Shown here: positions 17,719 through 17,750 of the stretch, one piece after another | Layout: every line of letters starts with the position of its first letter | How positions within the stretch are numbered: the first letter of the stretch is position 1 | Origin: a virus | Lineage: Duplodnaviria > Heunggongvirae > Uroviricota > Caudoviricetes | Virus record (IMG/VR): IMGVR_UViG_2534682161_000021 | Coordinates: 1 to 23,803 of that record | Strand: one strand, 5' to 3' | Length of the DNA: 23,803 bases | Notes under the pieces: generated by a model | Databases searched by the model: none | Seen by the model: the letters and a program-made list of their open reading frames with translations, nothing else | Told to the model about the DNA's origin: nothing | Made by a program: the position numbers and the translations under genes

Positions 17719-17750
17719 ACTATAAAACTAAATAGATTTAGTTTTATAGT
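17719..17750. promoter_or_regulatory. perfect 15-bp-arm palindrome ACTATAAAACTAAAT-ag-ATTTAGTTTTATAGT (oL-like operator)
   Basis: Direct reading; shares the AAAACTAA/TTAGTTTT core with the cro-cI intergenic half-sites; TTGACT -35-like hexamer at 17716-17721. Confidence 0.5.

Follow-up and report, generated by a model that had tools for sequence, protein, structure and literature searches.

What is a perfect 32-bp palindrome doing between the end of a prophage repressor gene and an operon that encodes division inhibitors? The stretch in which the question arises, called the window below, is the whole 23,803-nucleotide viral sequence that was analysed (IMG/VR record IMGVR_UViG_2534682161_000021). 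The answer proposed here is that the palindrome is the primary left operator (OL1), placed on the early-left promoter (pL) of the prophage's immunity region; we put the probability of this assignment at roughly 85%. As far as sequence allows the judgment, OL1/pL is a new example of a known element, the lambda-like switch, in an uncharacterised immunity type, and pL is predicted to gate the division inhibitors DicF and DicB. The original prediction had spoken of an oL/pL-like site, and this reading has been strengthened: the core of the palindrome recurs only at OR, it sits on pL, and it tracks the recognition helix of the repressor.

Table 1. Features of the immunity region and early-left operon (window coordinates)
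Feature	Position	Strand	Basis or remark
YdaT (cII-like) operator, TTGATT-ttcatg-AATCAt	16671..16688	.	cro/ydaT junction
Cro-like gene (P22_Cro family)	16678..16905	-	Pfam; nearest solved structure N15 Cro, 2hin
OR site a (AAACTAAGTATTTTTAGATT)	16918..16937	.	1 mismatch to core; PWM 28.7 bits
Inferred PR of cro-like gene	16933..16961	-	TTGACC (16961-16956), 17-bp spacer, TAATCT (16938-16933)
OR site b, weak (AGGATAATTTTTTTTAGGTC)	16940..16959	.	PWM 4.1 bits, rank 7 of ~23,800 positions
OR site c (AATCTAAAATAATTTATATT)	16965..16984	.	exact match to degenerate pattern; PWM 26.9 bits
cI-like repressor gene	16998..17648	+	Pfam: HTH_3 N-terminal, S24-like C-terminal
Repressor-gene intrinsic terminator	17670..17696	+	10-pair stem, then T-run
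Candidate auxiliary operator OL2 (TTTTTAAATATATCTAGATC)	17692..17711	.	degenerate; constant position across variants
pL -35 hexamer, TTGACT	17716..17721	+	alignment
Perfect 32-bp palindrome	17719..17750	.	repeat search and shuffles
Putative OL1 operator core	17725..17744	.	conserved palindrome part; PWM 23.8 bits
pL -10 hexamer, TAGTTT, 17-bp spacer	17739..17744	+	alignment; inside OL1 right half-site
Predicted pL transcription start	17751 (+/-2 nt)	+	inferred from -10 position and homology onset at 17754
Conserved leader of early-left transcript	17754..17905	+	structured RNA; ~30 immunity types
Start of predicted pL-controlled operon, ydfA to dicB	17918..19412	+
ydfA/DUF1391	17918..18070	+	first gene of predicted pL operon
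Unnamed ORF, 129-133 aa	18070..18471	+
DicF	18984..19035	+	Rfam, 76.7 bits
dicB	19224..19412	+
Exonuclease gene, 823 aa with 3'-5' exonuclease domain	19693..22164		follows dicB

The palindrome and its conserved core

The palindrome reads ACTATAAAACTAAAT-AG-ATTTAGTTTTATAGT. Repeat search of the window confirms what had been claimed for it: two 15-nt arms (17719-17733 and 17736-17750), 100% complementary, with 2 nt (AG) between them. It is the longest short-spacer inverted repeat of the 23.8-kb window, the runners-up having 10-nt arms; in 200 first-order Markov shuffles arms of 15 nt were never reached, and arms of 14 nt once. Its location had also been described correctly: it comes just after the terminator-like hairpin and T-run that begin shortly past the repressor stop codon, and it precedes ydfA, DicF, dicB and the exonuclease gene.

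Perfect symmetry over the whole 32 bp is a rare feature (17 of 5426 E. coli genomes) and probably a derived one. What relatives conserve is only the inner 20-24 bp, most likely the functional unit. The outer 5-6 bp of each arm, the source of the palindrome's striking look, are not conserved: the outer ACTAT/ATAGT symmetry varies even where the repressor is 100% identical, three such loci (L011, L014 and L015) having ATGGT. In the relatives' version 11 of 15 positions are symmetric (its B-type right arm is TTTTAGATTTATTGC), and the right arm of the window differs from it at exactly the four asymmetric positions, every change restoring symmetry.

The inner 20 bp are AAACTAA-ATAGAT-TTAGTTT. In 23.8 kb, core-like sites occur only here and at 16918 and 16965, both in the cro/repressor intergenic region; with up to 2 mismatches to AAACTAA-N6-TTAGTTT allowed, the sole other match in the window is 16918 (0.2 expected by chance). 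A position weight matrix (PWM) trained solely on sites of other loci singles out the same three positions, 16918, 16965 and 17725, above a shuffle maximum of 16.7 bits, the scores of the first two not being independent evidence because these sites are near-identical to homologous sites in the training set. (A match of 14.1 bits at 5727-5746 is set aside as chance: it lies inside a coding ORF and within the range of the shuffles.) The original prediction held that the palindrome shares its AAAACTAA core with this intergenic region, and 16916-16937 and 17723-17744 are indeed 82% identical across 22 nt. The operator consensus of this immunity type is AAWCTAA-N6-TTAKWTT.

The proposed early-left promoter and its operators

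The putative pL follows the 3' end of the repressor gene, precedes ydfA and points away from the repressor gene. Its TTGACT hexamer had been noticed before and is present, but it does not abut the palindrome, as had been said: it overlaps the palindrome's first 3 bases. All sequences aligned (Rac, CP-933P, the Actinobacillus phage pPE4 and other variants) share TTGAC, and Rac, Qin and CP-933P have early-left promoters that align with this one base for base. Counterparts of the -10 hexamer stand at the same 17-bp spacing: TATAGT in Rac, TAGATT in variants B and C, TATATT in variant D and Arsenophonus. A generic sigma-70 consensus scan did not call pL, its only nearby match being on the minus strand; it missed the -10 of pL because TAGTTT matches the consensus at only 3 of 6 positions. 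The alternative -10-like TATAGT at 17745-17750 is kept as an alternative only, since its use would mean either a spacer of 23 bp after TTGACT or a poor -35.

OL1 begins at +9 from the start of the -35 hexamer in every variant, the Arsenophonus phage included. It fills the spacer and -10 of the inferred promoter TTGACT-N17-TAGTTT, its right half-site supplying the -10. The candidate OL2 likewise keeps its place: in each variant examined it lies at -23 to -25 relative to the first base of the -35. Its score is far from constant: -2.7 bits in the window (not significant alone), 2.4-8.2 bits in other E. coli variants, 17.7 bits in Phlomobacter and 20.6 bits in Arsenophonus. No third site is seen at the OL region. 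At OR, site a overlaps the -10 and start of the inferred PR, whose hexamers, as read, are of the same types as those of pL and Qin dicBp; site b, assigned by position only, covers the PR spacer and -35; and the right half-site of site c contains the inferred PRM -10 (TATATT, 16979-16984).

How general is the arrangement? Of the E. coli-type IMG/VR relatives, the 44 whose sequence downstream of the repressor gene could be read all have the operator core at this position (one further locus, with a truncated repressor reading frame, L054, was left out of this count). Their HTH domains are near-identical and they keep AAAACTAAAT...TTA(G/T)(A/T)TT at the OL1 position. In relatives from Arsenophonus, Phlomobacter and Xenorhabdus the repressor is only 45-52% identical, its recognition helix is the same, and the core is present: before the repressor gene the E. 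coli-trained PWM finds exactly 2-3 sites, and after it two sites 33-35 bp apart (35 bp in Xenorhabdus). A repressor search of genome contigs yielded 5 loci, which served as outgroups and are too few for statistics. The possibility, raised with the original prediction, that the palindrome might be absent from prophages with the same repressor has thus been examined, and in the E. coli-type set and the three distant genera the core is there.

Beyond this immunity type, some 30 promoter-region clusters share one downstream leader, and each has its own inverted repeat around the TTGAC -35. In the four examples checked (Rac, CP-933P, pPE4 and O104), the repeat at the OL position comes back in the OR of the same element. 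The homology shared by all immunity types sets in at 17754, 3 bp past the palindrome: a different repressor goes with a different operator, in flanking DNA that stays shared, as immunity specificity demands. Among 5426 complete E. coli genomes, 474 (about 9%) have this immunity type, O157:H7 strains among them.

Regulators, rival readings and a proposed mechanism

The repressor has 216 aa with HTH_3 and Peptidase_S24 domains, the N-terminal domain resembling that of P22 c2 (E = 1.6e-7) and the C-terminal domain that of lambda cI. Its recognition helix, GVTGVTIGYWEKD, is conserved in all relatives. It has neither the canonical Ala-Gly cleavage site nor the catalytic Ser, with Ala-Ile and Thr in their places, and SOS induction through self-cleavage can consequently not be assumed. 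No characterised phage carrying this repressor was found.

Is it the perfection of the palindrome that needs explaining, or its core? The perfect symmetry might have arisen as a by-product of mutation and be without function itself, for example through a template-switch "correction" at a mosaic junction. By our own arithmetic, four random substitutions would all restore symmetry with a chance of about 9e-6; the outer arms vary among loci with identical repressors, as noted above; and homology with other immunity types sets in 3 bp beyond the palindrome. The inner 20 bp are kept, on the other hand, in all relatives and across genera, in fixed register with the promoter, which is unexpected of a neutral by-product, and one locus (L017) combines the outer ATAGT with an inner B-type half-site, a mixture which indicates that the changes did not all come from one event. 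We judge this explanation improbable; it concerns, in any case, the palindrome's perfection and leaves the operator assignment untouched.

A little less probable still is that the palindrome is the target of another immunity regulator, either a Cro-like protein alone or a tetramer of the cII-like YdaT. CP-933P YdaT has been footprinted on TTGATT-N6-AATCAA, a 6-N6-6 inverted repeat (PMC9986795) whose geometry is similar to 7-N6-7, and Cro proteins share operators with repressors, which makes a Cro-only site and a shared site inseparable by computation. A near-perfect YdaT-type repeat, one mismatch away from the footprinted one, is found where it is expected, at the cro/ydaT junction; the target of YdaT should accordingly differ from the palindrome, to which this repeat is unrelated in sequence, and YdaT was rejected as the palindrome's binder. 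The motif of the palindrome, moreover, follows the repressor's recognition helix across genera, and the repressor binds the left operator in lambda, CP-933P and Qin. The poorest prospects of all attach to a role as an antisense promoter, or as an RNA hairpin formed when repressor transcripts read through. The 15-bp hairpin, A/U-rich, could form in transcripts that pass the terminator, and the consensus scan offers a promoter-like minus-strand match (TTTATA-N17-TATATT, 17726-17698). This candidate promoter was rejected when its -10 proved to be lost in the B variant (TTAATT). As to the hairpin, its stem is A/T-rich and lacks a U-tract behind it, the terminator scan passed it over, and no Rfam family matches it; placed after a good terminator and before the inferred pL start, the palindrome is probably rarely transcribed at all.

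With OL1 as the preferred reading, we infer a scheme that runs from binding itself, the order in which sites are occupied, and looping to the start of transcription and the relief of repression. A dimer of the cI-like repressor, through its P22 c2-type HTH, would bind AAACTAA-N6-TTAGTTT at OL1; since the operator occupies the spacer and -10 of pL, bound repressor would exclude RNA polymerase, and in the lysogen the leader, ydfA, DicF, dicB and the exonuclease gene would be kept silent. Cooperative or looping contacts, made through the lambda-cI-like C-terminal domain, would probably extend to the degenerate site 33 bp upstream and to the three OR sites some 800 bp off. The Cro-like protein probably uses the same sites and would turn pL down after induction.

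Leader RNA, significance and known switches

Past the promoter lies a separate object of interest. The leader, about 150 nt long, is a covariation-supported structured RNA that is absent from Rfam: neither the gathering threshold nor a cutoff of E up to 10 brought up a credible match near the palindrome or the leader. Its predicted fold is a three-helix hairpin with the invariant loop CAAUACnnCGAGUUA at the tip; an invariant core, AAGUAGCCAGCCYGAGGCRUAnGAACAUGAMGGC, follows, and the leader ranges from E. coli to Actinobacillus and Arsenophonus. (A technical point: support for the structure appeared only once divergent copies were added. Taken singly, the sequence has an unremarkable minimum free energy (z = 0.66), and RNAalifold on 12 mostly similar sequences gives a covariation term near zero; with the divergent copies, 13 of 16 pairs are changed on both sides, and the score is 0.524 against 0.07-0.19 for slid controls.) One can speculate that the palindrome operator switches on and off a put-like or nut-like module of processive antitermination, built from this leader RNA and common to some 30 immunity types; the idea is tentative and, on balance, doubtful. 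The leader RNA may in that event carry early-left transcription beyond the DicF terminator, as far as dicB and the recombination genes, in prophages that have no N. On the same speculative view, the window's unusually perfect operator may make up for a degenerate OL2 and for the repressor's inability to cleave itself. There is no obvious sequence similarity to HK022 putL, and homology to put is therefore not claimed.

What is gained is an operator sequence and a promoter layout, assigned for an uncharacterised immunity type. DicF and DicB affect host physiology and phage resistance, and in EHEC virulence regulation as well; in carrier strains OL1/pL would decide the expression of extra copies of both. 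One promoter-plus-leader scaffold serves about 30 immunity types, with a different palindrome for each in the same 20-bp slot, and this reuse provides a ready-made route to reading the operators that uncharacterised prophage repressors use. The design of the element is a textbook one, and its identification is accordingly a useful annotation rather than a surprise.

The closest counterpart by position is PL933P of CP-933P (E. coli O157:H7), which lies directly upstream of the same leader. Its locus (L059) was located through a primer from PMC8630535, whose supplementary tables give primers without operator sequences, and L059 1776-1830 was set against window 17716-17770 by positional homology. 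Like pL, PL933P (TTGACT-N16-TAAACT) has an inverted repeat in its spacer and -10, with OL1-OL3, and the neighbouring genes are of the same ydaS/ydaT type. The repressor is unrelated: it is PaaR2, co-transcribed with the paaA2-parE2 toxin-antitoxin genes. The operator differs too (AGTTTAAT-N4-ATTAAACT, of a GTTTAGTAA-type consensus), and the window has neither this type of operator nor paaR2-paaA2-parE2. PaaR2 and YdaS, the cI-like and the Cro-like protein of that prophage, repress PL933P about 100-fold (PMC8630535).

Qin of E. coli K-12 offers the same operon, ydfA-dicF-dicB, driven by dicBp, and reportedly the original work on dicBp and the DicA/DicC operators is that of Bejar, Bouche and colleagues. 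Comparison with the dicA/dicC operators, which the original prediction had proposed, finds the same promoter-operator design with different half-sites: the spacer and -10 of dicBp (TTGACC-N17-TAATCT) contain the operator TGTTAGTCATGGCTAATC, and related sites stand in the dicC/dicA intergenic region, as they do at OR here, but the DicA-type half-sites (TGTTAG..CTAACA) differ in sequence from AAACTAA..TTAGTTT and are oppositely oriented. DicA has 135 aa and only an HTH, with no S24 domain, as against the 216 aa and two domains of the present repressor. Qin lacks most of the leader, retaining its last hairpin and the ydfA ribosome-binding site. Loss of DicA derepresses dicBp 22-fold (PMC10448788).

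In Rac the early-left promoter, TTGACA-N17-TATAGT, lies downstream of racR, in the same position and before the same leader; around and within it stand two RacR-type sites, and OR has another three. RacR and its operator differ in sequence from their counterparts here, the RacR consensus being WTAGGC-N3-GCCTAW (PMC9638921); a term search of that paper returned no left operator of Rac.

There remain the prototypes. The window has one strong site and one weak candidate at OL, unlike lambda and P22, and in place of an N gene downstream it has a structured leader RNA and ydfA. In the OL/pL regions of both phages, sites of the kind shared with OR overlap pL, repressor and Cro compete for them, and cooperativity resides in the repressor's C-terminal domain. 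The logic proposed for the present prophage is the same, carried out with a 20-bp operator (7-N6-7) of unrelated sequence.

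The palindrome and its counterpart in OR

The palindrome at 17719-17750, ACTATAAAACTAAAT-AG-ATTTAGTTTTATAGT, is as perfect as had been claimed: its two 15-nt arms are 100% complementary and 2 nt apart in a repeat search, no other short-spacer inverted repeat of the window is as long (the runners-up in our own scan have 10-nt arms), and arms of 15 nt appear in 0 of 200 first-order Markov shuffles. Its setting is also as originally predicted, after the repressor terminator (a hairpin and T-run 3' of the stop codon) and ahead of ydfA, DicF, dicB and an exonuclease gene. One detail requires amendment: the TTGACT hexamer is present, but instead of abutting the palindrome it shares three bases with its left end. 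The palindrome is embedded in a lambdoid immunity region of Rac/CP-933P type. The closest relative of the repressor's N-terminal domain is that of P22 c2 (E = 1.6e-7), and of its C-terminal domain that of lambda cI. The repressor was found in none of the characterized phages, and identity exceeding 60% only in the phage records of two induced E. coli prophages (92.6%).

Features of the immunity region and the DNA downstream
Feature	Position	Strand	Remark
YdaT gene	16256-16681	minus	cII-like
YdaT operator, PRE-like (likely)	16671-16688		TTGATTttcatgAATCAt; cro/ydaT junction
cro gene	16678-16905	minus	P22_Cro family; closest to N15 Cro
OR site a	16918-16937		AAACTAAGTATTTTTAGATT; 28.7 bits
PR -10 (predicted)	16938-16933	minus	TAATCT
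OR site b	16940-16959		4.1 bits
PR -35 (predicted)	16961-16956	minus	TTGACC
OR site c	16965-16984		26.9 bits
PRM -10 (predicted)	16979-16984		TATATT
Repressor gene	16998-17648	plus	216 aa; HTH_3 and Peptidase_S24 domains
Terminator-like hairpin and T-run	17670-17696		3' of repressor stop (17648)
OL2 (candidate, degenerate)	17692-17711		-2.7 bits
TTGACT (-35 of predicted pL)	17716-17721
OL1 (predicted operator core)	17725-17744		23.8 bits
pL start (predicted)	~17751
Leader	17754-17905
Leader core	17814-17831		AAGTAGCCAGCCCGAGGC
ydfA/DUF1391	17918-18070
DicF	18984-19035		Rfam, 76.7 bits
dicB	19224-19412
823-aa protein gene	downstream of palindrome		3'-5' exonuclease domain

That the palindrome shares a core with the cro-cI region is borne out: AAACTAA-N6-TTAGTTT, with up to two mismatches allowed, has a single other match in the 23.8-kb window, and that match, OR site a, is intergenic between cro and the repressor gene (0.2 matches are expected by chance; two were found in 0 of 100 shuffles). 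The form AAWCTAA-N6-TTAKWTT, with 0-1 mismatch, occurs only at 16918, 16965 and 17725, and a symmetrized weight matrix (PWM) trained solely on sites from other loci singles out the same three places as outliers (shuffle maximum 16.7 bits). The training set included homologous OR sites, which makes the OR scores non-independent; no training site has the right half of OL1 (the inner 20 bp of the palindrome), whose score is accordingly more independent. The weak site b lies between the two strong OR sites, and the start-to-start distances of 22 and 25 bp resemble the spacing in lambda OR. The predicted PR (17-bp spacer) would be overlaid by sites a and b, and the predicted PRM -10 would lie within site c. 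Another match, AAACTCAAATTTTGTATATT at 5727-5746 (14.1 bits, below the shuffle maximum; within ORF 5279-5992, minus strand), is probably due to chance.

Elsewhere in the window, an Rfam match to the sok antitoxin RNA (108 bits; 9220-9394, minus strand) implies that the prophage has a toxin-antitoxin locus of the hok/sok type. Adjoining it is a second palindrome, TATCACTTAAATAAGTGATA (9848-9867; 9-nt arms, 2-nt spacer), whose ends, TATCAC/GTGATA, are lambda-operator-like.

Conservation with the repressor, and the promoter register

Is the palindrome absent from other prophages with this repressor? Such absence would have refuted the proposal, and the core stands up to the check. Scanning IMG/VR with the repressor yielded 49 loci, 47 of them E. 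coli-type (91-100% identical) and two distant (L057 and L058; 46-52%); a genome collection added five. AAAACTAAAT...TTA(G/T)(A/T)TT is found at the same place in 44 of 44 E. coli-type IMG/VR relatives with a readable region 3' of the repressor (L054, whose repressor reading frame is truncated, is outside the 44), and the core extends to distant genera. The operator region comes in at least five sequence variants among the relatives. The N-terminal 68 residues of the repressor are almost invariant in all E. coli-type copies, and the recognition helix, GV(T/S)GVT(I/V)GYWEKD, is kept in homologues from Arsenophonus, Phlomobacter and Xenorhabdus that are 45-52% identical overall. When the E. coli-trained PWM is run on 3-5.6 kb of DNA from the distant relatives, the top matches fall on both sides of the repressor gene: two to three sites immediately upstream and, downstream, a pair with a spacing of 33-35 bp (Arsenophonus, +42/+75; X. 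hominickii, +140/+175; X. santafensis, +787/+822).

What is conserved is limited to the inner 20-24 bp. The outer ACTAT/ATAGT symmetry is missing in variants B to F, and ATGGT breaks it in three loci that encode the very repressor of the window (100% identity); of 5426 complete E. coli genomes, 17 have the window-type region, as against 474 with the repressor family. In the common B type the arms are symmetric at 11 of 15 positions; it is at just the four asymmetric positions that the right arm of the window departs from it, and all four substitutions restore symmetry (p ~9e-6 for four random substitutions, by our own arithmetic). These changes could stem from selection for a stronger OL1 or from a templated correction of a quasi-palindrome; more than one event must lie behind them because locus L017 has only the outer change. 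The -10 is weakened as a by-product (TAGTTT in place of TAGATT).

TTGAC is invariant in the alignment of the window, its relatives and other prophages with the same downstream DNA. At 17-bp spacing from it stand TAGTTT (window), TAGATT (variants B and C), TATATT (variant D and Arsenophonus), TATAGT (Rac) and, with TG in front, GAGCAT (Actinobacillus phage pPE4). Since the hexamers align there, the -10 is placed in the distal part of the OL1 right half-site; in all variants OL1 begins 9 bp past the start of the -35. A generic promoter scanner did not call pL, the window -10 matching consensus at only three of six positions. Every variant has a second site, 23-25 bp ahead of the -35 start; its centre is 33 bp from that of OL1. 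It scores 20.6 bits in Arsenophonus, 17.7 in Phlomobacter and 2.4-8.2 in the other E. coli variants; its counterpart in the window is the candidate OL2. Recurrence in OR, promoter register and conservation with the repressor together support the proposal of an oL/pL-like control site for the early-left operon: this element is most probably the OL/pL unit of an uncharacterized immunity type, an element of a well-known kind.

Repressor dimers on OL1 would most likely act by occluding pL, with help from the weak OL2 and perhaps from contacts between OL and OR, ~800 bp apart; with the repressor lost, pL would drive transcription of the leader, ydfA, DicF, dicB and the exonuclease gene, and Cro would afterwards damp it. 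RecA-stimulated self-cleavage of the repressor is doubtful because, in its S24 domain as aligned with lambda cI, Thr replaces Ser149 (DDTM versus GNSM; residues about 136-139) and Ala-Ile (residues about 92-95) stands at the Ala111-Gly112 cleavage site; Lys192 is retained, and Xenorhabdus homologues retain Ser (NDSM). Induction may need an antirepressor.

The leader RNA

The conserved leader, which starts ~3 nt past the predicted pL start, is a more novel lead than the operator/promoter element. It stands behind ~30 immunity types in phages of hosts as different as E. coli, Actinobacillus and Arsenophonus (the Actinobacillus phage copy is 78% identical), and is present in L002, L059, L060, L006, L145, L187, L188, L194, L204 and L270 and in more than 200 IMG/VR loci. 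It is non-coding, since reading frames are not kept across indels, and it matches no Rfam family. The leader is a structured RNA: divergent copies form three stacked helices closing an invariant 15-nt loop, CAAUACnnCGAGUUA, followed by an invariant core of ~35 nt, and in a 22-sequence alignment 13 of 16 pairs change on both sides, with 80 double-change cells (8-30 in slid controls) and a covariation score of 0.524 (0.07-0.19 in slid controls; reached by 0 of 500 shuffles). In Arsenophonus-type phages (L006 about 1160-1250, L188, L201) the core is followed at ~40 nt by a canonical boxA, CGCTCTTTAACA, which suggests a role in processive antitermination; no such boxA is present in the E. coli copies, and the window has only CAACTTTAAC ~30 nt past the core. 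The leader may be a put-like or nut-like antitermination element, with no evident sequence similarity to HK022 putL.

Several side observations concern this stretch. Some viral contigs (L195, L201, L209, L244) have a second leader core 1.7-2.7 kb from the first and oriented alike; the window has one core. Relative to most relatives (L012 and L016 were compared), the window lacks 5 nt at the leader start (17751-17760; ATACCACCCCGCCCC versus ATACCACCCCACCCCGCCCC), which looks like slippage in a CCACCCC repeat and reduces the -10-to-leader distance. The "head-DNA stabilization protein D" of public phage records, an ORF from inside the leader into ydfA (17840-18070; 2697-2933 in L001), looks like misannotated non-coding leader plus ydfA because frames are not conserved across leader indels.

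Rival readings and experimental precedents

Homology common to ~4000 E. coli genomes starts at 17754, three bases past the palindrome. IMG/VR was scanned for the conserved leader core and the upstream 63 nt were clustered: four of the 31 clusters (29 loci) are sub-variants of the window's immunity type, the remainder other types, and almost every cluster combines a TTGAC-type -35 with an inverted repeat of its own, placed in one and the same slot (for example TACCCATGGGTA, GGTAAC-N4-GTTACC, ACACAT-N-ATGTGT, CTCAC-N5-GTGAG, TTAGGC-N3-GCCTA). In Rac, CP-933P, pPE4 and an O104:H4 prophage the slot repeat is also present in the element's own OR; that of Rac is the footprinted RacR consensus (PMC9638921).

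Other readings of the palindrome were weighed. YdaT as its binder was rejected: YdaT has its own near-perfect repeat, TTGATT-N6-AATCAt, at the cro/ydaT junction, one mismatch from the TTGATT-N6-AATCAA footprinted for CP-933P YdaT (PMC9986795). An antisense promoter was set aside because the promoter-scan match is not conserved, and a terminator or RNA hairpin because the stem is A/T-rich, has no U-tract, lies upstream of the predicted start and has no Rfam match. A site for Cro only is unlikely; the precedents speak against it.

Those precedents are in keeping with a left operator and promoter under repressor control. In CP-933P, TTGACT-N16-TAAACT, with the repeat AGTTTAAT-N4-ATTAAACT, stands directly upstream of the same leader as in the window; this is PL933P, whose gfp fusion is repressed ~100-fold by PaaR2 and by YdaS (PMC8630535). 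Qin dicBp (TTGACC-N17-TAATCT) has a DicA-type site in its spacer and -10, and deleting dicA derepresses it 22-fold (PMC10448788).
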